20,000 nucleotides of DNA from an uncultured virus (IMG/VR IMGVR_UViG_3300042449_001682) (Duplodnaviria > Heunggongvirae > Uroviricota > Caudoviricetes): IMG/VR virus record IMGVR_UViG_3300042449_001682; one strand, written 5' to 3'. The translations under genes and the position numbers were made by a program. Positions within the stretch are counted from its first letter, which is position 1; each line of letters opens with the position of its first letter. Positions 2,564-20,000 of the stretch are shown piece after piece. The notes under the pieces are model-generated. The model made no database searches and had not been told where the DNA came from. It saw only the letters and a program-made list of their open reading frames with translations.

Positions 2564-5029
2564 ATGAAAAAGATTTTGCCTAAGGTGAAGAAAATCATAA
2601 ATATGTCCATCAAACAGGCTAAATTTTATGGGGACAATGAAGTAAAGATTGAACATATAATCATCTCATTGATAAATGATTATAATAATAATGCGGTTAA
2701 GGCGTTAATAAGTATGGGTGTTGATGTAGATAAACTACATAAGAGTATTGAGAAGAAATTACATAAGGATAGGGACGATTTTAACACTATGTTGGTAAAT
2801 AAAAAAGAGTTCCCTTTGGAAATTGTAACTGAAAATATTTTGAAGGGTGCAGAAAAAGAATGTGATTTGATGAATAATGAATATTTGGATACGGAACATA
2901 TTTTGTTGGCAACATTAAAAGTAAAAAATGACATAAGTAGTATATTAAAAGGGATGAAAATAAATTATAACAGTTACAAAACTTCTATCGAAAACTCTAT
3001 TGAGCCAGTAAGTGGAGATGGTGAAGACAATTTCAGTAAAATACCCAAACCAAAAGGTAGTACTAAATCCAACGACACCCCTATTTTAAATAATTTTTCT
3101 GTGGATGTAACTAAAAGGGCGTCTGAAGGTAAAATTGATCCTGTAATTGGTAGGGATGAGTCCATACAAAGAGTTGCACAGATTTTGGCTAGGAAGAAAA
3201 AAAATAATCCAGTCTTAATTGGTGACCCTGGTGTTGGTAAAACTACAATTATTGAGGGTTTAGCGTTAAAAATTGCACAGGGTGATGCACCTAGAACTTT
3301 ATTAGATAAGAGAGTTGTGTCATTAGATTTAACGTCTTTAGTTGCAGGTACTAAGTATAGAGGTCAGTTTGAGGAAAGAATAAAAGGTGTGGTGGATGAA
3401 TTAATGGAAGTCGATAATGTAATCTTATTTATTGACGAATTACATACTATGGTAGGTGCGGGTAACTCATCAGGTTCTATGGACGCTGCGAATGTATTAA
3501 AACCTGCGTTGGCTAGGGGTGATATACAGTTGATTGGTGCAACTACTTTAGATGAATATAGAGAACATATCGAAAAAGATGGTGCATTAGCGAGAAGATT
3601 CCAACAAGTTCTAATTGAACCACCTACAATAGAGGAAACAATTCAAATATTAGATAAAATTAAATCTTCATATGAAACTTACCATAAAGTAACTTACCCA
3701 TTAGTAACTATTGAACATTGTGTTAAAATGGCTGACAGATATATTACAGATAGGGAATTTCCTGATAAGGCAATTGATATTATGGATGAAATAGGTTCAA
3801 AAAGTCAACTATCTATCAAACCACCATCATCTATAAGTAAATTGGAGGAGAAGATTGTTGAAATTAAGAACAGAAAAAGTGAGGTTGTTAAGAAACAAAA
3901 ATACGAAGAGGCTGCAAAGTTAAGAGATGAGGAAAGGGAGGTTAATGAAAAATTAGTTTTAGAAAAAGAAAAATGGTTAACAAATTTGAATAACGAAAGA
4001 ACTGTTGTAACCATTGAGGATGTTAATGAAGTGGTGTCCTCAATGACTGGAATACCATTAAAAAGAATTAGTGGGGATCAAGGTAAAAGGATGTTAGAGA
4101 TTGAAGGTGAGTTAAAAAAATCAATTATAGGTCAAGAAATTGCGTTGGAAAAGATTGCCAAATCTATTAGAAGAAATAGAGTTGGTATTCGAAACCCTAA
4201 AAAACCAATTGGTACTTTTATGTTTTTAGGTCCTACAGGTGTGGGTAAAACTCATATTGCGAAAAGATTGGCAGAATACCTTTTTGGTGATGAGGACTCA
4301 TTAATTAGATTAGATATGTCTGAATTTCAAGAGAAACACTCAATATCTAGACTTATTGGATCTCCTCCAGGATATGTTGGTCATGGTGATGGTGGACAAC
4401 TAACTGAAAAAGTGAGAAGAAGACCATATTCAATAGTACTATTTGATGAAATAGAGAAAGCAAATAAAGAAATCTATAATACACTATTACAATTATTGGA
4501 TGACGGTCAACTTACTGATAGTTCTGGTAGAAAAGTTAACTTTAAAAATTGTATGGTTATTATGACATCTAATGTAGGTGTTAAAAAATTACAAGATTTT
4601 GGTACAGGTGTCGGATTTGGTACTAAGTCAAAATTAGAGAGAGAAGACTCTATTAAAGAAAGTCTATTAACTGATGAATTAAAAAAACAATTCCCACCAG
4701 AATTCCTTAATAGGTTAGATGATGTAATCATATTTAAATCTTTAACTAAAGAAGAAATTGGGAAAATTGTTGATTTGGAATTAGTAAAACTTAAGAAGAG
4801 AGTTGGTGAAATAGGTTATAACTTAATTATCAACAAAACGGTTAGGGATTATTTAATTGATGATGGGTATAGTGAAGATTATGGGGCTAGACCTCTAAAT
4901 AGGGCAATACAAAAACATATCGAAGATCCTATATCTGAAGAAATTTTAAGTGGTAATGTAAAGGATAATGGTACCATAAAAATAAGTTATTCTAAGGCAA
5001 AAGATGAAATTATCATAAAAAGTGAATAA
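2564..5029 (+). CDS. clpC: ClpC-type ATP-dependent Clp protease ATPase subunit
   Basis: Two Clp-N repeats (EHII/EHIL), Walker A GDPGVGKT and GPTGVGKT, pore loops GTKYRG and PPGYVG, UVR middle domain QKYEEAAKLRDEE, ClpP-docking VGF loop, GARPL sensor. Start moved from TTG 2519 to ATG 2564. Confidence 0.95.
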   Translation: MKKILPKVKKIINMSIKQAKFYGDNEVKIEHIIISLINDYNNNAVKALISMGVDVDKLHKSIEKKLHKDRDDFNTMLVNKKEFPLEIVTENILKGAEKECDLMNNEYLDTEHILLATLKVKNDISSILKGMKINYNSYKTSIENSIEPVSGDGEDNFSKIPKPKGSTKSNDTPILNNFSVDVTKRASEGKIDPVIGRDESIQRVAQILARKKKNNPVLIGDPGVGKTTIIEGLALKIAQGDAPRTLLDKRVVSLDLTSLVAGTKYRGQFEERIKGVVDELMEVDNVILFIDELHTMVGAGNSSGSMDAANVLKPALARGDIQLIGATTLDEYREHIEKDGALARRFQQVLIEPPTIEETIQILDKIKSSYETYHKVTYPLVTIEHCVKMADRYITDREFPDKAIDIMDEIGSKSQLSIKPPSSISKLEEKIVEIKNRKSEVVKKQKYEEAAKLRDEEREVNEKLVLEKEKWLTNLNNERTVVTIEDVNEVVSSMTGIPLKRISGDQGKRMLEIEGELKKSIIGQEIALEKIAKSIRRNRVGIRNPKKPIGTFMFLGPTGVGKTHIAKRLAEYLFGDEDSLIRLDMSEFQEKHSISRLIGSPPGYVGHGDGGQLTEKVRRRPYSIVLFDEIEKANKEIYNTLLQLLDDGQLTDSSGRKVNFKNCMVIMTSNVGVKKLQDFGTGVGFGTKSKLEREDSIKESLLTDELKKQFPPEFLNRLDDVIIFKSLTKEEIGKIVDLELVKLKKRVGEIGYNLIINKTVRDYLIDDGYSEDYGARPLNRAIQKHIEDPISEEILSGNVKDNGTIKISYSKAKDEIIIKSE

Positions 5030-5033
5030 AATA

Positions 5034-5065
5034 TTTGGCAGATTAAATAATTCTTATTACATTTG
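5034..5065 (+). promoter_or_regulatory. Bacteroidota-type promoter
   Basis: TTTG (5034-5037), N20, TACATTTG (5058-5065); 21 nt before ATG 5087. Confidence 0.8.
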
Positions 5066-5086
5066 TTCTTATAAAACTATAACGAT

Positions 5087-5587
5087 ATGAAAAATTTAGT
5101 GATTTTATTCAGTCTTCTTTTGGGTGTAGAGGCTTATTCCCAAAAAGATATGGTTTCTTATTCCATTGAAAATAATAAGAAAGTAGTTTCTCAGATGAAT
5201 ATTGATTCTTTGGAAACTGTTTTGGTTGGTATGATAAACTCTTTTAGAGTGAGTAACGGATTAAGTATTCTCACTAAAGATGTATCATTATCAACCTACG
5301 CAGATGAGTGGTCAGTGAATATGTTGAATAAAAATAAAATCTACCACTCCGACATTCAAAGTAATAGTATTGTCGCAGAAAACGTATATTTCAGTAAATC
5401 ATTTGGTGTTTTCCCTATGACTAAGGAATATGTGTCTGAAGTAACTAATAGAATTTACAATAGTTGGTTGACTTCTGAAAAACATAAGAAAAATATGTTA
5501 ACTGAAGATATTAATAAAATCGGAGTATCTATTGTACTATTACCTAACGGTATGGTAGATGAATCCTCAACAATGGTGGTTAATTAA
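5087..5587 (+). CDS. Secreted CAP/SCP-domain protein
   Basis: Signal peptide MKNLVILFSLLLGVEAYS|Q; CAP motifs IN.FR..NGL..L, YHS, AENV, W..SEKHKKNML, IGVSI. Confidence 0.88.
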   Translation: MKNLVILFSLLLGVEAYSQKDMVSYSIENNKKVVSQMNIDSLETVLVGMINSFRVSNGLSILTKDVSLSTYADEWSVNMLNKNKIYHSDIQSNSIVAENVYFSKSFGVFPMTKEYVSEVTNRIYNSWLTSEKHKKNMLTEDINKIGVSIVLLPNGMVDESSTMVVN

Positions 5588-5598
5588 CCACCATTGTT
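5569..5598. terminator. Perfect 30-bp palindrome, probable bidirectional terminator
   Basis: AACAATGGTGGTTAA|TTAACCACCATTGTT spans the CAP stop codon between convergent genes; T-rich tail on the plus strand. Confidence 0.75.
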
Positions 5599-5601
5599 TT
5601 A

Positions 5602-6126
5602 TTAGAATTGTGTATTATAAAGACATTTAGTAATCTGTACTAAATTCGCAATATCTGTAGTAAAATCATATTTACTTACCCATTCATCTACAGATTCACC
5701 TGTTTGTGGTGTAAAATCGTCTTTAATATGTTTTCTTTTTGATTTACTATCATTAGACTTAAGATCCTTAATCACTTCGTCTATATGTCTTCTACAAAAA
5801 TTAACTGTTTTTTCTACTGCCTTTTCTCTTAAAGTGACATCAGTTATTTTTGATAGGATACCAGCGTTAATTTCATCATTCTTTAACCCTTCACATCCAG
5901 TAACTGAAAATGTTACACCAGTTTTCATTTTCTTTAATAAAGTATTATCTGAAGAAGCGTTAGTACCTGCATTACCTGCATCCGTACTGTCGGATCTTAA
6001 CCATTCAGGATATGTCTTAAAACAAAACTTAAATGATATTTTTTCTTCTTTTAAAAGATATTTTTTAATTGATGCGATATCACTTTCTGTAAGTGTAACT
6101 ACAACATTATTTTTTTTAATTTTCAT
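5602..6126 (-). CDS. Hypothetical protein (174 aa) with LTESD/LLKEE leader, putative virion protein
   Basis: Start reassigned to ATG 6126 (MKIKKNNVVVTLTESDIASIKKYLLKEE), which removes the overlap with the upstream gene. Confidence 0.75.
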   Translation of the reverse strand: MKIKKNNVVVTLTESDIASIKKYLLKEEKISFKFCFKTYPEWLRSDSTDAGNAGTNASSDNTLLKKMKTGVTFSVTGCEGLKNDEINAGILSKITDVTLREKAVEKTVNFCRRHIDEVIKDLKSNDSKSKRKHIKDDFTPQTGESVDEWVSKYDFTTDIANLVQITKCLYNTQF

Positions 6127-6145
6127 AATATATATTTTTAAATTA

Positions 6146-8104
6146 TTAACCCCATTTAGGACAACAAGTCTGACAAACTTTTGAGAAATCGGGTGCTTTA
6201 CCAAAAAACCTACGTTTAGGTTTAAGATTTCTTAAAGACTTCTTTATTTTTCTTTTTAATTTTTTAATACCTCTCTTAAAATTTTTCCAAGAATCTTTAA
6301 AACTAAATTCTCCATTTGACTGTAGCTCTATTCCCATTCCTGGTACTGCAATAACAAAATAATCCTCACCGACCTCTGATTTAGTTACTATAGTTGGTTT
6401 TTTTAATGTAACGCTAATACCAGCCAAATTCATTCTAAATGGTCCGTATATATCGTTATATTCTTGAGATAATTCTTGTTGTGCAACTTCTCTACCTAAT
6501 TTTTCTGACGCTTTCTTTGCCCAAGCAGTACCTCTATTACCATAAAATAACTGTGGTTTTAGTTCATTGTCTTTTTTGTATGCCTCTTGGAACATTGCAC
6601 CATATGCGGTTATAGGTACGTCTGAACCATCAGCATATTTACCATCTATTTTCTCCCAACCTGGACCGATATTAGGTTTTTCTATTCTAGAGGCTAAGAT
6701 TATATTATAACCATCTAACTTATATTGTTTCAAAATACCTCTAACTGAGTTTTCTATAACATTACTTCTATCTTCCGCTAATTTTATATTATTATCTTCA
6801 CTAAAACTTTTATCTTTACTTTTATATGATGTTCTTACTTTACTGGTTGAGGAATAAATAAATATGTTTATTGATGACACATCTAATTTAAATTCTTCAC
6901 CTAAATCATTTTCAGTTCTTTGTGCTTCAACCTCTGAATCTTGAGTGTCTATAAACTTTCTTAATAATCTCACTTGTTCTCTAATACCATCAATTGCCTC
7001 TGAAGACATAGACGTACCATCATCTGGAAAGAAATTATTACTTAAATTATTTCTTTCACCTTCAGGTGTATTTTCTGGTGGGTACTGGAATATATCAGAA
7101 TCTCCTTCTTCCATAATAGGTACACCTTTACCCGCCTCATCCTCAACTTTAAACTGTTTAAGTTCTGTAGGTTTATCAGTAATTGTTATATTAGTAATTT
7201 TCTTAAGTAATTTTCTATATGTATCCTCACCAACAGACTCAATTTCAGCAGATAATTTTTTCATTACACTATTTTTAATACCAATTCTTTGATCTGTATT
7301 TACATCTATTTTGACATTCTCATCATCTACATCTAAACCAATTTCTTTTTTATCTTTTAAATTAAATCCTATCAGATAACTTACAACATCTTTCAAAGAT
7401 TCCATAGAATTAGGATCAGTCTTAGGATTTTTACTAAAATCTATTAAAACATTAAGATTAGTTTTTAATGGTTCTAATATTTCCTTTTTTAGAAAAACTT
7501 TACCATTATTAATTGCAATTAATTCCTTATTTAATTTTTCTAATGTTCTGGACGATACTAAAGTATCAACTGATTTTTTTAAGTTTTTATCGGTAACATT
7601 AAATGTTTTAAGATCAATTTTTGATGCGTTGTCTAATATAGTTGTTACTTCTGACTGAAGATTTTTATCGTACTGATCAGGTGCAACCACATTTTTCTTA
7701 GTTTGTTTTACATCCTCAGATTTTTTAATCCCATAATATATGTCACCAAACATCCACTCCTTTAATGAATTCCTTACACTTTCACTATCATTGCCTTCAA
7801 ACCAATCCATCATTGTTGTGTACGATGGATTATTTAAAAAAGAACCACCAAAATACTCGTCAACTTCTCTAATATATTCAATAATATCTTTTAATTTCGC
7901 ATTTTCCCAATTAAACTTACCACCCTTAGACCAATCAGAAAATACTGGAACTTCCTCTTCCTGTTCCTTTATTAGGTATTTTTTTACCAATTTTTCTTCT
8001 AAAAGTCTATCGAATGAAGTGACATTTTCTCTATATTCATTTGAGTCATGTCCCATTAATTTTCTCATTCTATATATTTCTTCTGTTAACGTATTTTTTC
8101 TCAT
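6146..8104 (-). CDS. 652-aa protein with a divergent OmpA-like domain and basic, Cys-containing tail
   Basis: Leader LTEEIYRMRKLM shared with 8810..10225; FFPDD..MSSEA..INIFIYSSTS..NNIKLAEDRSNVIENSV..GP..FR resembles the OmpA C-terminal fold. ORF is certain, domain call moderate. Confidence 0.6.
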   Translation of the reverse strand: MRKNTLTEEIYRMRKLMGHDSNEYRENVTSFDRLLEEKLVKKYLIKEQEEEVPVFSDWSKGGKFNWENAKLKDIIEYIREVDEYFGGSFLNNPSYTTMMDWFEGNDSESVRNSLKEWMFGDIYYGIKKSEDVKQTKKNVVAPDQYDKNLQSEVTTILDNASKIDLKTFNVTDKNLKKSVDTLVSSRTLEKLNKELIAINNGKVFLKKEILEPLKTNLNVLIDFSKNPKTDPNSMESLKDVVSYLIGFNLKDKKEIGLDVDDENVKIDVNTDQRIGIKNSVMKKLSAEIESVGEDTYRKLLKKITNITITDKPTELKQFKVEDEAGKGVPIMEEGDSDIFQYPPENTPEGERNNLSNNFFPDDGTSMSSEAIDGIREQVRLLRKFIDTQDSEVEAQRTENDLGEEFKLDVSSINIFIYSSTSKVRTSYKSKDKSFSEDNNIKLAEDRSNVIENSVRGILKQYKLDGYNIILASRIEKPNIGPGWEKIDGKYADGSDVPITAYGAMFQEAYKKDNELKPQLFYGNRGTAWAKKASEKLGREVAQQELSQEYNDIYGPFRMNLAGISVTLKKPTIVTKSEVGEDYFVIAVPGMGIELQSNGEFSFKDSWKNFKRGIKKLKRKIKKSLRNLKPKRRFFGKAPDFSKVCQTCCPKWG

Positions 8105-8120
8105 AATAAATTATTTTATT

Positions 8121-8129
8121 TATAAATAT
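8121..8129 (-). promoter_or_regulatory. ATATTTATA putative late promoter
   Basis: 16 nt upstream of ATG 8104. Confidence 0.65.
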
Positions 8130-8148
8130 AAAAAAAACGGTAAAAAAA

Positions 8149-8179
8149 TTTGTATAATAAAAAAAATGGTGTATATTTG
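8149..8179 (+). promoter_or_regulatory. Bacteroidota-type promoter
   Basis: TTTG (8149-8152), N19, TATATTTG (8172-8179); 20 nt before ATG 8200. Confidence 0.8.
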
Positions 8180-8199
8180 TTCTTATAAACGTAACAACT

Positions 8200-8805
8200 A
8201 TGAAAAACTTAATTTTGATTTTGATGTTTATCCTACCATCAGTAGTTTTTTCTCAGAGAGATGGTTCGAAAGTAATGGACGTAAACAATATCGATTACCG
8301 ACTTTTGGATAGTCTGATTATTGTTGAGATTAATGTGGTAAGAGATTCATTAGGTAATAACAATATGCATTACTCACGATTGGTGAGTGACAATGTTTCA
8401 AAAATAAGATGTCAAAAATTACACAGTGAAGAAAAAGTATATCATCCAGATGGTAGGTTGGAACTATATAGTGAAAAATTAAAGTCCTCAATTATGGGAG
8501 AATCTTATTCTACATATAAATTTAAAGGTGGTGTTAATGTAGTAGACGGTTTTGAAATTTGTTTATTTAAGACAAAAAATTACAAACTATTAACGTATGG
8601 TGATATAGCAAAATCAATTGTAGATTATTGGGAGACATCTCCTGATCACTGTTTTGTGATTAGAGATGTATTTAATCAACAAATTACTGATAATGGAAAA
8701 GAAGTATTCTTAATGAGCGGTGTTTCTACAAAATACGGTACCTACAAAGGTAAAAACGGATTTTACGCAGTACTAAACCTTACAGTTGTTTATAAGCGTC
8801 AGTAG
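8200..8805 (+). CDS. Secreted divergent CAP/SCP-domain protein
   Basis: Signal peptide MKNLILILMFILPSVVFS|Q; EINVVRDSLG, VYH, FEI, IVDYWETSPDH and GVS align with CAP motifs and with the 5087 paralog. Confidence 0.72.
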   Translation: MKNLILILMFILPSVVFSQRDGSKVMDVNNIDYRLLDSLIIVEINVVRDSLGNNNMHYSRLVSDNVSKIRCQKLHSEEKVYHPDGRLELYSEKLKSSIMGESYSTYKFKGGVNVVDGFEICLFKTKNYKLLTYGDIAKSIVDYWETSPDHCFVIRDVFNQQITDNGKEVFLMSGVSTKYGTYKGKNGFYAVLNLTVVYKRQ

Positions 8806-8809
8806 GTAG

Positions 8810-10225
8810 TTATTCCTCTTTACGGTAAGCAGGGAATTTAATCTCAAAACGTCTATCTGGTCTAGTTTCTTCATTACTGTAAGGACTTTTAACATTCTGT
8901 GGTACACCGTCTTTTATTTTTGTCTCAGGTTGATTCCAAACTAACCCACTCCATTGGTTTGTTTCACCTTTACCTACTGCAACAAAATTCACATCTTTAA
9001 ATGCACCATTCGCAATTGTTTTTAGGTATTCTACTACTGCTTTTGCTCTAGCCTCACTTAAACATTGATTGTATTTTACTCTCGGACCTTTACCCAAACC
9101 GTATTTAGAACAACCCGCGTAACGACCACCATCAGGGAAATTGGATAACGCATCTATAGAAGCATATGCATTAACTACAATAGTTTTATCTTCTAAAAAT
9201 TCTAAATACTCTTCTTTTCTATATTGTGGGATAGGATTCCATATTTTAACAATGTTCTCATCAATTATATCTTTCGCTTCTTGAGTTAATACTGCCTCAT
9301 CAATTGGAAAGTTTTTAATCGCTTCTACTGCAAAATCAAAAACAATTTCACCATCTTTACATCTTTCTGGTAACGGGCTACCGCACTCATATGTAATCTG
9401 TTCACCTGTTTCTACATCATTACAAAAACATTTTGTTGGTTCTGGATCAGTTTTATTTGGATCGGGCTCACCCCAACTTTTAGGTATATCTGCACCGTTT
9501 ATTTGAATTTTAGTAAGTTTAACCTTAAAAGATGATTCTATCTCACCATAAAGATTATCATTTAGTTTAATGAAAAACCTTCTATTAAATGATAGTAATG
9601 TAATATCCTCCAGTTTAACTAATTTGGCACCATTAACACTTTGTTTAATAGTCCTTTTTAAGTCCCTCTTATTACCAATCACCATCATTTTGAATGATAT
9701 TGGCGTAGAACCTTCAGGTATTAATCTCATTTTTATAGTTTCATTATCTATTTGATTTTTAATCGAATCATATCTATCATATAATAATCTAAAACATCTA
9801 TCCTTTAAAAGTTCTTCCCTAACTAAAGATACTGAAATATCGGTTGAGAATGGGATATATCTATCAGTTACTTTAAACATATATACACCCTTACTAGTTT
9901 TTGATAATGGTAACTCAACGTCACCTATTTTGAAAAATATATTTTCTGGTCCAGTTGCAACTACCTTAACTTTTATCTGAGGTTCTATAACATTTAATTG
10001 TTTTTCTAATAAATCATTTAACTGATTACTCATTTGGAATGACACCTCAGGTGGTCCACCATATACTCTATCACACTCTCCCTCTTCAGGATCAGTATTT
10101 TTTCCTTCAGTACTCTTATTAAAATTTTCTTCAGATAGTGAATCATGAGAATTTTCATTAATGTTAAATGACATTAATTTTCTCATTTTTTGTATTTCTT
10201 CGTTAAGGGTTTGAACTTTTTTCAT
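8810..10225 (-). CDS. 471-aa protein with C-terminal OmpA-like (peptidoglycan-binding fold) domain
   Basis: FPIDEAVLTQEAKDII..IVVNAYAS..YNQCLSEARAKAVVEYL..AVGKGET..RPDRRFEIKF; no signal peptide or beta-barrel; leader LNEEIQKMRKLM. Confidence 0.85.
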   Translation of the reverse strand: MKKVQTLNEEIQKMRKLMSFNINENSHDSLSEENFNKSTEGKNTDPEEGECDRVYGGPPEVSFQMSNQLNDLLEKQLNVIEPQIKVKVVATGPENIFFKIGDVELPLSKTSKGVYMFKVTDRYIPFSTDISVSLVREELLKDRCFRLLYDRYDSIKNQIDNETIKMRLIPEGSTPISFKMMVIGNKRDLKRTIKQSVNGAKLVKLEDITLLSFNRRFFIKLNDNLYGEIESSFKVKLTKIQINGADIPKSWGEPDPNKTDPEPTKCFCNDVETGEQITYECGSPLPERCKDGEIVFDFAVEAIKNFPIDEAVLTQEAKDIIDENIVKIWNPIPQYRKEEYLEFLEDKTIVVNAYASIDALSNFPDGGRYAGCSKYGLGKGPRVKYNQCLSEARAKAVVEYLKTIANGAFKDVNFVAVGKGETNQWSGLVWNQPETKIKDGVPQNVKSPYSNEETRPDRRFEIKFPAYRKEE

Positions 10226-10233
10226 AAAATAAA

Positions 10234-10398
10234 TTATCTTCTTCTATTTCTATTTTCTGACAATCTTTTAGATTCTCTTTGTCTTAAAGATTCAGTAACT
10301 TGCGCTCTTTTTTCTCTTTTTACTTCATTAACAATTCTTTCTACTAAGTTAATCATTTCTGATTCAGTCAATCTAATCACTTTTTTTTCTCTTCTCAT
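10234..10398 (-). CDS. Small Arg-rich protein, 54 aa (not in ORF track)
   Basis: MRREKKVIRLTESEMINLVERIVNEVKREKRAQVTESLRQRESKRLSENRNRRR*; fills the gap between the late motif and the OmpA-like gene; shares the LTES leader. Confidence 0.8.
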   Translation of the reverse strand: MRREKKVIRLTESEMINLVERIVNEVKREKRAQVTESLRQRESKRLSENRNRRR

Positions 10399-10430
10399 TT
10401 TTTTAAGTTTTTTATTCTTTTTATTCTTAT

Positions 10431-10439
10431 TATAAATAT
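10431..10439 (-). promoter_or_regulatory. ATATTTATA putative late promoter
   Basis: 32 nt upstream of ATG 10398. Confidence 0.65.
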
Positions 10440-10459
10440 ATTAAATTTTATAAAAATTT

Positions 10460-12106
10460 TTATCTAAATGTAATTGTTCCACCTACTTCATCCACTAAAC
10501 TTTGGAATTCTTTTGCATTATCAGGTGATAAGTTATTTACCACATCAGAGTTCACACCAAAACGAATAAATGTTTCGTCCTCTATCATTTTTGTTAATAC
10601 AGGTACATTAATTTCTTTTATAGGATTGTTTAATAATGTGATCATGAAACATTCTTTTAATGTTTCATAACCATCTAAAGGTGCCTTAGTAATTTGGTTG
10701 TCATTGAAACTAAGTACGTTAATCATTCTACCACCATCAGGTAAGATATTCACAGATGGTAACTCAGTTAAATTACAATTATTTGCAGTAATTCTATCTA
10801 CCTTGTGGAATTTAGACATATTTGGCAATTTACCTAAATTCATATTAGAAAAGTCTAAAGATTCTGTAACCTCAGGATCTAAATAATCCAATATCTCCAC
10901 ATTCTCAGTATTTTCCATCAACCACTTCAAATATTTGTTTTGTTGTAAAGGAACTTTTTGTTGTGAAGCCAATTTTTTAATGTTATCAACACCTTTTTGG
11001 TAAACTTCACCAGAAATAACTTCCTCTGCCTTACCACCAAACATATTCATATATTTAATGTATGCACTATCCATAAGTCCTGTACCTTTAACTACATCCA
11101 TCTCAACTAACTTACCCAATTCCTTTTTAAAGAAATCCTTTAATCCTGGAAATCTACTTAGAACTTCACTAAGTTTAGAACTTCTTTCTATTGACTGGTT
11201 GTTTTTATCGTGTAACTGATTAGATTCAAAGTGGAATTGTAATGGATACATACCACCCTCATCATCTCCTGAGAATAAAGCTTTAGGCATAATTACATAA
11301 TAATCCGATAATGTACCGTCAGGTTTAGGGTTATTTCTTCTGTAAGAATCAAAATAACTATTACCCTCTCTTCTAGTACACCATGAGGCTAAAGGACCTA
11401 AAGGATCACAACTAGACTCAATAGTCTGTGGTGAATATACTAAAACACCATTATCTCTATAAACTAATTTCGCCTCACCAAGATCAACATATTTTTTTAA
11501 TTTTTTCCAAAGAGGACTTTCACCATCTTCACTATCATCATCTGATGATCCAATAAACGGACTCACTACCGAATAAAGATGTGCCAAATCATTATATTGA
11601 TTTATGTCTGTAACATTTTGAGGTGCATTTGGTCTATTAGGTGCACTTCTCTTAAATACTTTTTTATCCTTAACACCATCAAAAATAGTTAAGAACTCAT
11701 TTGCTTCAGGTAAATCTTCAGTCAAAAATCTAATCGCTTGTTCAATATCACCATCCGCAATATGTCTTAAGAAAACTTGAATCATCCATTGAACATATTG
11801 TTTATTTCTTGATGGATCTGCCTCAACAATGTCATTAAATATTTCATCTGTTAATTTTACAGATTGTTTACCTTTATTATTTGTTACAATATAAGCAATG
11901 TCTACACCATCATGATTTTCTATGGGTTCTACTTTAATTTTGTTAGGATCCATACCACCCTCAGGTCTCTTACTTTTTTTCTCTAACTTACCTTTAGTTA
12001 AGTCATCTAATAATTTGGGGTCAATGACATTTTGAGTCTTCAAAAAGGCAACTCTATCTTCTTTTAATAAAATTCTATATTGATTTTCTGTTATAATGTA
12101 CTTCAT
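10460..12106 (-). CDS. 548-aa protein with a central WCT-motif region and C-terminal leucine-rich repeats
   Basis: LRR-like units LDFSNMNLGKLP, ITANNCNLTELP, LSFNDNQITKAP, ITLLNNPIKEI; central ADPS..KQYVQW, DINQY and ASWCT motifs; leader MKYIITENQY..LLKE. Confidence 0.7.
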   Translation of the reverse strand: MKYIITENQYRILLKEDRVAFLKTQNVIDPKLLDDLTKGKLEKKSKRPEGGMDPNKIKVEPIENHDGVDIAYIVTNNKGKQSVKLTDEIFNDIVEADPSRNKQYVQWMIQVFLRHIADGDIEQAIRFLTEDLPEANEFLTIFDGVKDKKVFKRSAPNRPNAPQNVTDINQYNDLAHLYSVVSPFIGSSDDDSEDGESPLWKKLKKYVDLGEAKLVYRDNGVLVYSPQTIESSCDPLGPLASWCTRREGNSYFDSYRRNNPKPDGTLSDYYVIMPKALFSGDDEGGMYPLQFHFESNQLHDKNNQSIERSSKLSEVLSRFPGLKDFFKKELGKLVEMDVVKGTGLMDSAYIKYMNMFGGKAEEVISGEVYQKGVDNIKKLASQQKVPLQQNKYLKWLMENTENVEILDYLDPEVTESLDFSNMNLGKLPNMSKFHKVDRITANNCNLTELPSVNILPDGGRMINVLSFNDNQITKAPLDGYETLKECFMITLLNNPIKEINVPVLTKMIEDETFIRFGVNSDVVNNLSPDNAKEFQSLVDEVGGTITFR

Positions 12107-14524: not shown

Positions 14525-14556
14525 TTTGGTGGATTCATTATTTCTTTTTACATTTG
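14525..14556 (+). promoter_or_regulatory. Bacteroidota-type promoter
   Basis: TTTG (14525-14528), N20, TACATTTG (14549-14556); 18 nt before ATG 14575. Confidence 0.8.
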
Positions 14557-14574
14557 TCCTATAAAACAACTGTT

Positions 14575-15069
14575 ATGAAAAATTTAATTTTGTTATTCGT
14601 ATTAATAGTATTATCTGTTAACTCATATTCTCAGTGTTATACCTCTAAAAAAGAAGGTTGGGTAATAAGTGATGGTATTAACACAATTAATAATAAAGGG
14701 TTTGTAATTGATTCTCATTTCCCTAAAGAAGAAACTGTTAAAGGTAAAACTACTTTTAGAAAAGTTGATAATTTATCTAAAGACACCATATCGTCTGAAA
14801 AAAATGGTTCATACTTCTATTATTTTGACTTTACTACTAAAGAATTGGATTTACATGATTGTAATGGTTCATTTAGAATTTATAATATAAGTAAAATCAA
14901 ACATAAAGGTGATACATATTACATCACAATTAAAGAATCAGGAAAAAAGATTAAGTTTAAAATTATTTTTCACGATTACGTTGAATTTACTCAAATAAAC
15001 TACTATAAAAAAGAAAAGTATAGTAATATATTGATTAATAAAAATTCCACCTATTACAGTAAGAAATAA
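14575..15069 (+). CDS. Secreted hypothetical protein, 164 aa
   Basis: Start reassigned to ATG 14575; signal peptide MKNLILLFVLIVLSVNSYS|Q; beta-rich-looking mature part with no recognised family. Confidence 0.8.
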   Translation: MKNLILLFVLIVLSVNSYSQCYTSKKEGWVISDGINTINNKGFVIDSHFPKEETVKGKTTFRKVDNLSKDTISSEKNGSYFYYFDFTTKELDLHDCNGSFRIYNISKIKHKGDTYYITIKESGKKIKFKIIFHDYVEFTQINYYKKEKYSNILINKNSTYYSKK

Positions 15070-15319: not shown

Positions 15320-15721
15320 ATGAAATTGTTAGATATTATATCTGAAGACACACAAATACCATTTAAAAATAAATGTCTGATAACTATTACGAATAATAAT
15401 GGTGAAGAAATTGACGTTGAGTGTGAAGTACCTAGTACTGAAGAAGAAAAAGTTACTGGTTTAATGTATAGAGACAATCTTTGTCAAAACTGTGGTATGT
15501 ATTATGACTACGTTAGTAGTGGTTTTTGGATGAAGAACGTTAACTTCCCTATTGAGATGATTTTTGTGAACGGAGATACTATTGTAGATATTAAAAGTGC
15601 GTATCCTAATGACATATCAATTATTAAACCTTCAGAATTTTCAGACGGTAATATAGAAGTAAATGAAGGATTTTGTGAGAATAATAATATCTCTATAGGT
15701 AATACTTTTTATAAGTCATAA
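15320..15721 (+). CDS. DUF192 domain protein
   Basis: EV..T.EEK.TGLMYR..L..NCGM...FWMKNVNFPIEMIFV...IV.I...IEVNEG......I.IG; start moved to ATG 15320 (MKLLDIISE). Confidence 0.85.
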   Translation: MKLLDIISEDTQIPFKNKCLITITNNNGEEIDVECEVPSTEEEKVTGLMYRDNLCQNCGMYYDYVSSGFWMKNVNFPIEMIFVNGDTIVDIKSAYPNDISIIKPSEFSDGNIEVNEGFCENNNISIGNTFYKS

Positions 15722-16122
15722 ATTTCAGGATTCTCATCCCCAAATTGTCTAACTAATCTACCAGCCCTAGCATTCGCCTCATCTTCCCAAGGAGAACCTT
15801 TTTCACCTTCACCTTTGTTACCCCTTAAGTCACCCCTTACGTTTTGATTATGGTGTACCATTTCATGTGCAATTGATCTAATTATATCAGGTATTGCTCT
15901 ATTCTTTTTAACTACGGTAATCTCTTTTCCTTCAATATCATAATTACCTAAAGTATCAACACTATCAGTATTGTCTGTTAAATTTATTTTGAAATCGTCA
16001 CCTAATGATAATTCACTCTTACCAAATTCAATAAAATCTTCGACAATACCTTCGTTAATGTTATTTCTAACTATATTGGATACTTCTTCTTTTAATATAC
16101 GTTTAATTAATTTTTTCATCAT
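15709..16122 (-). CDS. Small HExxH zinc metallopeptidase-like (minimal zincin) protein
   Basis: IIRSIAHEMVHHNQ plus downstream WEDEANARAG third-ligand motif; leader MMKKLIKRILKEE. Confidence 0.75.
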   Translation of the reverse strand: MMKKLIKRILKEEVSNIVRNNINEGIVEDFIEFGKSELSLGDDFKINLTDNTDSVDTLGNYDIEGKEITVVKKNRAIPDIIRSIAHEMVHHNQNVRGDLRGNKGEGEKGSPWEDEANARAGRLVRQFGDENPEIYDL

Positions 16123-19001: not shown

Positions 19002-20000
19002 AACCCAAATCTAGATTTAGTTGCATTATAATTTTGACTTATTTCTGTAGTACTTAAACCTTTAGTGTAGAAATAACAGGATCCAATTTTACCGTTAAGA
19101 AAAAGTGAACCCACACCACTACCAATAAAACCTAAATAAAATGGATTGCTTTCGTTATATGAGTCGCTACCATGTGAATTAGTAATATACTCTGTTTCAT
19201 TGATGTACACCTTAGTTGTATTCGATGATGAGGTTATTTGTGACATAAATGTTAACAAGTACCAAGTATTAGTCGTAACTGTTAGGGTAGAATTACTTAT
19301 TTTCTGTTGACTAGTACCATTTGTAACACATCTTACTATCCCACTGTTTGAGAATAACCCACCCCAATATCCGTCAAACCCAAACGATCCAGATAATTTA
19401 CCAAAAACAGGTATCTGCTGGTTAAGTCCACCTAAAGAATCGAATTTAACCCAAACCTGTACAGTTTTTTGGGTGGTAGTTGAAAGAGATAGTGAAGAAT
19501 TGTGAGGAACACTAATAGTATCGTTAATACCATCAAAATCAAATATACCACCATCCGTAGATAACCAAGTTGCACCATTTATTGTTGCGTCATTCCCATT
19601 ACCTGTTTCATCGGACCAAGATCCACTAATATAATTAGATGCATCTAATTCCATAAATAAACTATCAGTAACTATCCCACTAATCGAACCACCCCAAGAA
19701 GTCCAATAACCATTATTATTTAAATAATTTTTACATCCATCTCCCGTACTAAAACTTTGATTAAACAGTCCATTAGTTAAACTAATGAAAGAATTTTCTG
19801 TTTTTGATTCCGATCGCCAAAAACCCAAATATGCGGATACATTATCTGGGTTAGGTTGTGTGCCAGATAATGTTGTATGTGCAATAACGTAACCTAAATC
19901 TTCATCTGGACCGTTCCACCATCTAACACCACCTGCATTTTGAGAATAGTTTAAAGAAGGGGATACCCCTATGGCAATACTACCTACTTGTTCTGTACCA
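18998..20000 (-). CDS. LamG/concanavalin A-like lectin domain protein, putative virion surface protein (5' end beyond window)
   Basis: Frame stays open past 19828 to the edge (GTEQVGSIAIG..WWNGPDEDLGYVIAH..YLGFWRS); C-terminal LDA..W.D.TGNGN.ATING..FDFDG.ND..TVQVWVK..WY.L..YIN..GKIG....Y.K.LS..EI.QNY fits LamG_3. Confidence 0.85.
   Translation of the reverse strand, partial: GTEQVGSIAIGVSPSLNYSQNAGGVRWWNGPDEDLGYVIAHTTLSGTQPNPDNVSAYLGFWRSESKTENSFISLTNGLFNQSFSTGDGCKNYLNNNGYWTSWGGSISGIVTDSLFMELDASNYISGSWSDETGNGNDATINGATWLSTDGGIFDFDGINDTISVPHNSSLSLSTTTQKTVQVWVKFDSLGGLNQQIPVFGKLSGSFGFDGYWGGLFSNSGIVRCVTNGTSQQKISNSTLTVTTNTWYLLTFMSQITSSSNTTKVYINETEYITNSHGSDSYNESNPFYLGFIGSGVGSLFLNGKIGSCYFYTKGLSTTEISQNYNATKSRFGL

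Follow-up and report, generated by a model that had tools for sequence, protein, structure and literature searches.

In phage T5, the early exported, periplasm-facing lipoprotein Llp is encoded beside the gene for the virion protein pb5 and excludes via a shared host target (PMC9586334). The envelope protein SieA of phage P22 blocks DNA entry, and escape mutations map to the ejected proteins gp16 and gp20 (PMC10461980). In phage T4, the protease gp21 cleaves after L/I-x-E, and a 10-residue propeptide, the capsid-targeting sequence (CTS), loads diverse, poorly conserved proteins into the head (PMC9026906). Here, we analyzed a 20,000-nucleotide window of the uncultured phage IMGVR_UViG_3300042449_001682, in which positions 5,034 to 10,439 carry a polymorphic two-gene envelope module that is present twice. 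In each copy, a gene for a secreted protein of the CAP/SCP type (CAP1) or remotely related to it (CAP2) faces an operon encoding a large OmpA-like protein (652 or 471 aa) with a conserved N-terminal leader. The original prediction for this DNA knew of no such phage system, but the architecture does have a precedent in T5 Llp/pb5 (PMC9586334). Both arrangements place the gene for an exported partner beside that of a putative entry protein, and we infer early timing and virion location for the pair described here. Llp is a small lipoprotein and pb5 a tail-tip binder of an outer-membrane transporter, whereas the window encodes a CAP fold without lipobox, a leader-tagged OmpA-like protein, and a duplicated module. 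A literature search, with supplements outside its scope, found no description of a phage CAP/OmpA-like pair.

The two modules comprise the following features, with coordinates given within the window:

5034..5065, plus strand: putative Bacteroidota-type promoter of CAP1, TTTG-N20-TACATTTG (pattern search; shared 14-mer at 5062-5075)
5087..5587, plus strand: CAP1, a 166-aa signal-peptide CAP/SCP protein (PF00188, E 4.2e-11; phrog_16914)
5602..6126, minus strand: 174-aa protein, encoded second in the 652-aa operon, with an LTES-type (type B) leader (sequence and locus comparison)
6146..8104, minus strand: 652-aa protein with a type A leader (1-36), helical domains, a predicted OmpA-like fold with insertions (~330-568), a polybasic tail, and a C-terminal Cys-Pro motif (AlphaFold2, VIA, alignment)
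8120..8129, minus strand: phage promoter-like motif ATATTTATAA ahead of the 652-aa gene (motif search)
8149..8179, plus strand: putative Bacteroidota-type promoter of CAP2, TTTG-N19-TATATTTG (pattern search; shared 14-mer at 8176-8189)
8200..8805, plus strand: CAP2, a 201-aa signal-peptide protein, probable remote CAP relative with a polymorphic mature part (hhalign, Atlas, cassette profile)
8810..10225, minus strand: 471-aa protein with a type A leader (1-32), a hypervariable domain (~36-275), and a predicted OmpA-like domain (~285-469) (alignment, AlphaFold2, VIA)
10234..10398, minus strand: 54-aa protein, encoded first in the 471-aa operon, with an LTES-type leader and an arginine-rich tail (sequence; kept upstream of the OmpA-like gene in many relatives)
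10430..10439, minus strand: phage promoter-like motif ATATTTATAA ahead of the 54-aa/471-aa operon (motif search)

All six open reading frames (ORFs) of the original prediction are present where it had placed them. The pair of large gene and secreted partner recurs in every evaluable relative. The original description of one layout repeated twice holds for the two convergent modules, but not for the gene order, which differs between the copies: the small leader-bearing gene lies after the 652-aa gene but ahead of the 471-aa gene. The 174-aa gene was seen in three loci only (the window, L003, and L011) and is not a conserved part of the module. The shared leader claimed for the two large genes was confirmed by BLASTP, which aligned residues 5-41 of the 652-aa protein with residues 6-37 of the 471-aa protein (E 8e-4); sequence likeness between the two proteins is limited to this leader.

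The relatives of the 471-aa protein came from one viral-contig locus and 53 metagenome loci. Eleven loci (L045-L055), which encode a 384-aa protein in a one-directional context, were set aside as bacterial, judged from their gene maps; none of the 10 genes scored in them had a secreted neighbour. Among the 44 phage-type genes, seven lay at contig ends and 37 were evaluable, with at least 500 nt of downstream sequence. In all 37, the next gene encodes a signal-peptide protein of about 200 aa. The partner is mostly convergent, with stop codons ranging from 14 nt apart to a 4-nt overlap (gaps of -4 to 14 nt); it is co-directional in L014, L017, and L043, which belong to the 37, as well as in L056, and in all four loci it retains a promoter of its own. 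Including the window, the 38 genes form 28 clusters at 95%, 15 at 80%, and 10 at 60% identity, and the adjacency persists down to 35-40% identity and in both orientations. Linkage across relatives, which the original prediction had proposed as a check, was thus found wherever it could be evaluated.

The set of secreted partners was assembled from iterated profiles that merged families partly via their common signal peptide and leader, and the proteins were re-clustered after trimming these parts. After this trimming, members of the 471-aa family were partnered by members of the CAP2 family in 35 of 36 cases; the one deviation is an artefact of the pairing rule in L021. The other module lies next to a full-length ClpB/ClpA-like double-AAA ATPase gene (2564-5029, plus strand; 821 aa; phrog_4871, E 6e-252) that is conserved beside it and is itself preceded by a ATATTTATAA motif and a TAnnTTTG box. 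This ClpB-side module is looser, with large proteins of 374-781 aa from several families. A Pfam scan of 47 partner proteins detected PF00188 in eight (E <= 0.01; six above the cut-off), DUF2927 in three, and no family in the rest, including the whole CAP2 family. Despite this looseness, partner type tends to track the type of the large protein. We consider it very probable that the two genes of a pair are functionally coupled.

CAP1 is a member of the Pfam CAP family (PF00188; 44.2 bits, cut-off 21.1). For CAP2, Pfam returned no match, nor did it for any of 20 CAP2 relatives, and the search of the PDB with a CAP2 profile found no CAP entry. After removal of the signal peptides, hhalign aligned the CAP2 family with the CAP1 family over 114 columns (probability 96.4%, E 1.4e-9), superposing two histidine motifs, and an Atlas feature search with CAP2 gave a lead to a PF00188 cluster (score 0.93). 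CAP2 is therefore called a remote CAP relative here, and of the two CAP genes originally claimed, the first stands as such and the second in this weaker sense. His82, Glu119, and His150 are invariant in the CAP2 family. Both proteins start with K, about 14 hydrophobic residues, and then (Y/F)SQ, a pattern read here as a putative signal peptide; neither has a lipobox Cys. A third signal-peptide gene is located at 14575-15069 (plus strand; with its upstream region, 14525-15069). It has the same Bacteroidota-type promoter and a near-identical signal peptide, belongs to no Pfam family, and carries a Cys directly after the SQ site, which makes it lipoprotein-like. It is 47% identical to its counterpart in the related locus L003, between flanks of ~94%, so that it appears to be another fast-changing secreted gene.

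The AlphaFold model of the 471-aa protein (predicted local distance difference test, pLDDT, 73.8) was compared with 48,161 chains in the wide VIA search. The top 33 matches are all OmpA-like (Z 9.4-5.2, over model residues 285-469), after which Z falls to 4.9; the best one aligns 108 of 109 residues at Z 9.4 with a root-mean-square deviation (rmsd) of 3.0 and covers the whole domain. The model of the 652-aa protein (pLDDT 71.7) likewise matches a whole OmpA-like domain over residues 330-567, with insertions (Z 8.2, rmsd 3.0, 114 of 120 residues aligned). The absence of an OmpA fold from this protein had been named beforehand as a finding that would count against the idea, and the model argues for its presence. 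Foldseek with the whole 652-aa model returned nothing at E <= 0.001 (E >= 0.05). The PF00691 profile stayed below its cut-off of 27.2 bits for the 471-aa protein (20.4 bits) and did not match the 652-aa protein; it occurs in the precomputed annotation of some distant relatives, and a profile search of the PDB gave E ~5e-4. In the 471-aa family, D358 and R393 are invariant, and we take this Asp and Arg pair to be the diaminopimelate-holding residues of a peptidoglycan-binding OmpA-like domain. When the post-leader parts of the 652-aa and 471-aa families were aligned, hhalign gave a probability of only 21.8%, so that sequence does not demonstrate a shared origin of their OmpA-like domains. The middle domain of the 471-aa protein (57-250, within the full-length model) gave no fold match above Z 4.1.

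OmpA-like anchors such as TagL/TssL of the type VI secretion system, MotB/PomB, ZorB, and Pal tie trans-envelope devices to the wall, and the cell exports them or inserts them into a membrane. The same fold is predicted for the phage proteins (TagL, Z 9.0), but these, unlike the anchors, appear to have neither signal peptide nor membrane segment. On the ClpB side, the large proteins close with a polybasic helix and then, in their last two to five residues, a C-terminal Cys motif (C-P/D/A-x-aromatic); in the family of the 652-aa protein (window 6146-6340), Cys648 is invariant and Pro649 nearly so. Residues 143-255 of the same protein (window 7340-7675) are modelled as a four-helix bundle that matches MLKL, NRG1 CC-R, CAMP factor, and IncA at Z ~7, in the non-specific range of the tool. 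A complex prediction for the 471-aa protein and mature CAP2, run without controls, scored 0.00 and is uninformative either way.

The promoter motifs divide the two kinds of genes. TTTG-N19/20-TAnnTTTG, which we take to be the housekeeping (sigma-A-type) promoter form of Bacteroidota, has four matches in the window against 0.98 expected; three precede the three signal-peptide genes and the fourth precedes a methylase gene. The host-type promoters originally proposed for both CAP genes correspond to the matches at 5034-5065 and 8149-8179, and an identical 14-mer lies 24-25 nt ahead of both start codons. The facing units had been described as driven by TATTTAT. This motif is more fully ATATTTATWW on the coding strand, and it is found ahead of the 652-aa and 54-aa genes. 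The window contains eight matches where 3.2 are expected; seven of these lie immediately upstream of a gene, and the portal gene has the motif ahead of it as well. In the full set of fetched phage loci, the host-type pattern is found before 36 of 48 secreted partners, none of the 48 OmpA-like/X genes, and 10 of 348 other ORFs, whereas ATATTTATWW precedes none of the 48 partners, 17 of the 48 OmpA-like/X genes, and 101 of the 348 other ORFs. Neither the T4 late box TATAAATA (seven matches, 6.75 expected) nor a generic sigma-70 pattern (25 matches, 32.5 expected) was enriched in the window. From these motifs, we infer that the CAP genes are early and the OmpA-like genes late.

In the 471-aa family, the first 35 residues hardly vary, even between members that are 50% identical over the remainder, and L30 and E32 do not vary at all. 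The type A leader, consisting of the helix L-N/T-E-E-I-x-R/K-M-R-K-L-M and then L-x-E, was found in 35 of 596 unique ORFs, nearly all of them large genes of modules; a 162-aa ORF in L006 is a clear exception, and a 211-aa ORF in the close relative G001 has a type-A-like leader and no secreted neighbour. A further 45 ORFs start with the type B leader (R-L-T-E-S-D/E-L...), among them those for the 54-aa, 174-aa, 548-aa, and lysozyme-SH3 proteins of the window. An [LI]xE ending at residues 17-40 is present in 34 of the 35 type A, 36 of the 45 type B, and 208 of the 516 other ORFs. G001 also encodes a gp21-type protease (Peptidase_S77, E 8.3e-26) in a head module with T4 order: portal, two small genes, protease, likely scaffold, and likely major capsid protein, the last two assigned by position only. 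Both hallmarks of a T4-type CTS, an N-terminal propeptide ending in L/I-x-E and a gp21-type protease, are thus found, the protease in G001. The leader-bearing 548-aa protein next to the modules has a homologue in phage PA5oct (23% identity, E 5e-6) that is annotated as 'structural protein, ESI-MS/MS'.

Since the lineage has a gp21-type protease and the leaders end in (L/I)xE, loading of the OmpA-like proteins into the virion is plausible. The likeness is to the T4 internal proteins IPI-III and Alt, whose N-terminal propeptide ends in L/I-x-E, is removed by gp21, and precedes diverse, poorly conserved cargo (PMC9026906); here, too, a gp21-type protease occurs, and the variable part starts at the point where the conserved leaders finish with L-x-E. 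Unlike the T4 propeptide, the leaders span 22-36 aa with a conserved helix after the first L-x-E, and the putative cargo includes predicted peptidoglycan-binding folds. In L059 (G001:C1:1-17000) and L002, dozens more genes start with LTES-type or KLIK-type leaders, and an address-like tag therefore appears to be used far beyond the paired modules. The 54-aa protein, which has little beyond its leader and arginine-rich tail, is a candidate DNA-associated head peptide. At 15709-16122 (minus strand), the window encodes a 137-aa protein with an M-M-K-K-L-I-K-type leader and an H-E-x-x-H motif, which is fused into a longer form of 346 aa in L003.

The paired genes vary strongly between otherwise near-identical phages. 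Comparison of the window with L003 gave protein identities of 96% for ClpB, 97% for the methylase, 90% for the 548-aa protein, 85% for the 652-aa protein, and 93% for CAP1, whereas the 471-aa protein and CAP2 were 53% and 70% identical. At the DNA level, identity is 85-96% in the flanks and 45-72% between ~8300 and ~10100, and this low-identity stretch is bordered on one side by the last signal-peptide codons of CAP2 and on the other by the last leader codons of the 471-aa gene. The leader-side border was found again in the comparison with L007. Among pairs of phages whose ClpB proteins are 90-96% identical, the identities of OmpA-like protein and partner were (48,67), (60,81), (89,90), (52,65), (53,70), and (48,64). 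In support of the original idea of cognate pairs, the OmpA-like and CAP2 genes diverge together as a cassette, and in one pair both remain at ~90%. These comparisons show that the module is exchanged or diversifies as one unit, whose limits are the conserved 5' ends of its two genes.

The window corresponds to the reverse strand of an IMG/VR record of 32.9 kb, whose completeness CheckV puts at ~10%. The record terminates within the portal gene, and the final 367 bases of the window (19634-20000) extend past the end of record G000. Upstream, this record also encodes a portal (PF07230, E 8.7e-77) and a large terminase, both of T4 type; judged by the portal, the cultured phages closest to it include Microcystis phage Mel-JY01 (42%) and Flavobacterium phage immuto (35%). 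Homologues of the 652-aa and 471-aa proteins occur on contigs of up to 289 kb, and positions 5000-10500 are present almost entire in 19 lake-water metagenome runs, two of which are possibly the window's own source. On this evidence of portal and terminase, contig size, and lake runs, the source is, by its sequence, a common uncultured freshwater T4-like jumbo phage, and a T4-type jumbo phage of freshwater Flavobacteriales, with a G+C content of ~30%, is the best explanation for the group. Positions 5000-10500 had no DNA match among cultured phages, and tblastn with the 471-aa, 652-aa, and CAP1 proteins found no match in 50,697 phage records. Run X20, whose library is labelled metatranscriptomic, contains a 25.8-kb contig of a phage variant. 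Because this contig spans the region (compared over 4500-10600), it provides no evidence of transcription and is likely carried-over DNA. The variant represents a further form of the cassette, in which the 3' half of CAP2 (8456-8832) is replaced and positions 9233-9417 have diverged.

Counterparts of both domain types occur in bacteria. A pattern scan of one genome per species detected one CAP2 relative, on a 132-kb contig of a metagenome-assembled genome (MAG) of the Crocinitomicaceae, where its neighbours encode a subtilase and a beta-lactamase-family protein with sorting domains of the type IX secretion system, a leucine-rich-repeat protein, and a Fib_succ_major protein. Homology to the phages covers 680 nt, from the CAP2 start codon to ~75 nt beyond the stop codon. 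The CAP2 frame is intact, its DNA is 87-89% identical to phage alleles, and the ratio of nonsynonymous to synonymous substitution rates (dN/dS) is 0.15 against the nearest phage allele; of the OmpA-like gene, only a stub of 32 residues remains beside it. No T4-type portal was found in this MAG, which is incomplete. The orphan CAP2 fits a host from the Crocinitomicaceae and a partner gene that is useful alone.

The CAP2 profile matched 28 of 201 genomes of the same family, with 32 matches in all, 23 of which fall in open frames of 521-906 aa. A signal-peptide-like start together with an N-terminal PF00188 domain (E 2.4e-13 to 5.4e-10) was seen in four full-length proteins of 778-882 aa. A nine-sequence profile of residues ~345-515 of these ~800-aa proteins gave OmpA-like matches in the PDB (30 of the 32 matches listed, best E 5.5e-4), and the same region shares an A-S-I-(D/E) motif with the domain of the phage 471-aa protein (hhalign E 3e-4, 39 columns, probability 39.6%). 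Because of the N-terminal PF00188 domains and the OmpA-like profile matches, the CAP and OmpA-like domain types appear to occur fused in envelope proteins of the likely host group. Like the phage pair, these Bacteroidota proteins combine the two domain types, and the phage CAP2 profile picks up the CAP domain in them; unlike the pair, they are single polypeptides with one signal peptide and a large C-terminal domain absent from the phage. Atlas gave further leads for bacterial proteins of this kind, and L075, L076, L077, and L078 encode secreted proteins of ~800 aa in which an N-terminal CAP domain is combined with a probable OmpA-like domain around residue 400 and a C-terminal domain rich in Cys. 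We know of no published name or function for these proteins.

The reading that we prefer is that a wall binder delivered with the virion and an early periplasmic partner together exclude later phages. The large OmpA-like protein would be produced late and loaded into the virion by its leader, which a gp21-type prohead protease would cut off at the conserved L-x-E. At entry, the protein would be released into the envelope of the next host, where its OmpA-like domain would grip peptidoglycan. Soon after infection, host RNA polymerase would transcribe the CAP-type partner, which would be exported to the periplasm and block that entry step for later phages of its own type. It could bind the arriving protein or, in the manner of T5 Llp towards pb5, occupy the envelope target that this protein uses. 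Exchange of cassettes would then create exclusion types among co-circulating phages. The proposal resembles P22 SieA in that an envelope protein is aimed at a virion-borne entry factor (PMC10461980); SieA has neither a CAP nor an OmpA-like fold and is not part of a convergent cassette.

Taken as a whole, this chain is possible rather than probable, and several observations weigh against it. The (L/I)xE signal is short and occurs in the same span in 40% of the other ORFs, and the leaders (~22-36 aa) exceed the 10-aa T4 CTS. ATATTTATWW, a putative late motif, also lies before the ClpB-like gene. In the 652-aa family, S421 takes the Asp position, while R446 is kept. We know of no head-packaged peptidoglycan binder in a myovirus, and the T4 internal proteins are ejected into the cytoplasm (PMC9026906). 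The joint divergence of adjacent genes can be explained by linkage alone. Some relatives have DUF2927 instead of CAP partners on the ClpB side (3 of 47), and the CAP fold itself is therefore not essential. Finally, the bacterial orphan CAP2 is a single case from a pattern-limited scan.

Could the pair assist lysis instead? The OmpA-like proteins would then stay in the cytoplasm until holin lesions form, the 652-aa protein would help to break the outer membrane with its polybasic tail and helical bundle, and the CAPs would prepare or restrain this step from the periplasm. A peptidoglycan-binding fold without a signal peptide is also typical of canonical endolysins, and the 652-aa family has a conserved polybasic C-terminal helix. 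The four-helix bundle resembles membrane-permeabilising domains, but its weak Z values (~7) fall into the tool's non-specific range. Two genes upstream on the same strand lies a lysozyme-plus-SH3 gene (PF18013, E 5.3e-18); its product, however, matches tail and tape-measure PHROGs and bears a leader itself. Profile scans recognised no holin or spanin here, and the pair does not look like a two-component spanin or lysis cassette, as there is no membrane segment and no lipobox Cys, the genes are convergent, and the promoters differ. Hypervariability among near-identical phages and the retention of CAP alone by a host also fit poorly, and we regard a lysis function as unlikely.

The fused host proteins suggest another alternative, in which the OmpA-like protein brought by the virion encounters the early CAP in the periplasm of one newly infected cell, and the two replace or jam the host CAP-OmpA-like fusion, remodelling the envelope. 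In its favour are the CAP2-profile matches in 28 of 201 family genomes, mostly in long frames (23 of 32), the four full-length proteins with N-terminal PF00188, the OmpA-like PDB matches of the ~345-515 profile, and the unusual A-S-I-(D/E) motif common to phage and host proteins. However, the host OmpA-like assignment relies on weak sequence scores (hhalign 39.6%), the meeting of the two phage proteins is a supposition, and this scheme, too, requires delivery by the virion, so that it seems improbable to us. That linkage alone keeps the pairs together, the ends of late operons being insertion hot spots for 'moron-like' secreted genes with host promoters, would suit the third secreted gene (14575-15069), which has the same promoter and faces a different kind of gene, and the differing partner families of the ClpB side, but is very unlikely given adjacency in 37 of 37 genes down to 35-40% identity and in both orientations, type A leaders almost confined to these genes, and fusion of the same two domain types in bacterial proteins.

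More speculatively, and doubtful as it stands, the phage might have split a host CAP-OmpA-like fusion into a virion half behind a capsid-address leader and an early secreted half; the swappable cassettes would then be exclusion types among lake phages, and bacteria would capture the secreted half for defence. Returning to the wall binder with an early excluding partner, this reading, if true, would add a new pair of proteins to an established strategy, the matching of an early exclusion factor with an entry factor of the virion. To our knowledge, entry and exclusion are almost unstudied in freshwater Bacteroidota phages, and the source group belongs to the abundant uncultured members of these. 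The cassettes are ready-made sets of cognate and non-cognate alleles, and the orphan CAP2 in a Crocinitomicaceae genome points to a host group. The function of CAP/SCP proteins in prokaryotes is, as far as we know, largely obscure; if the proposal is true, it would assign a role to bacterial and phage members of this family and would mean that cargo packaged in a phage head can act on the cell wall.

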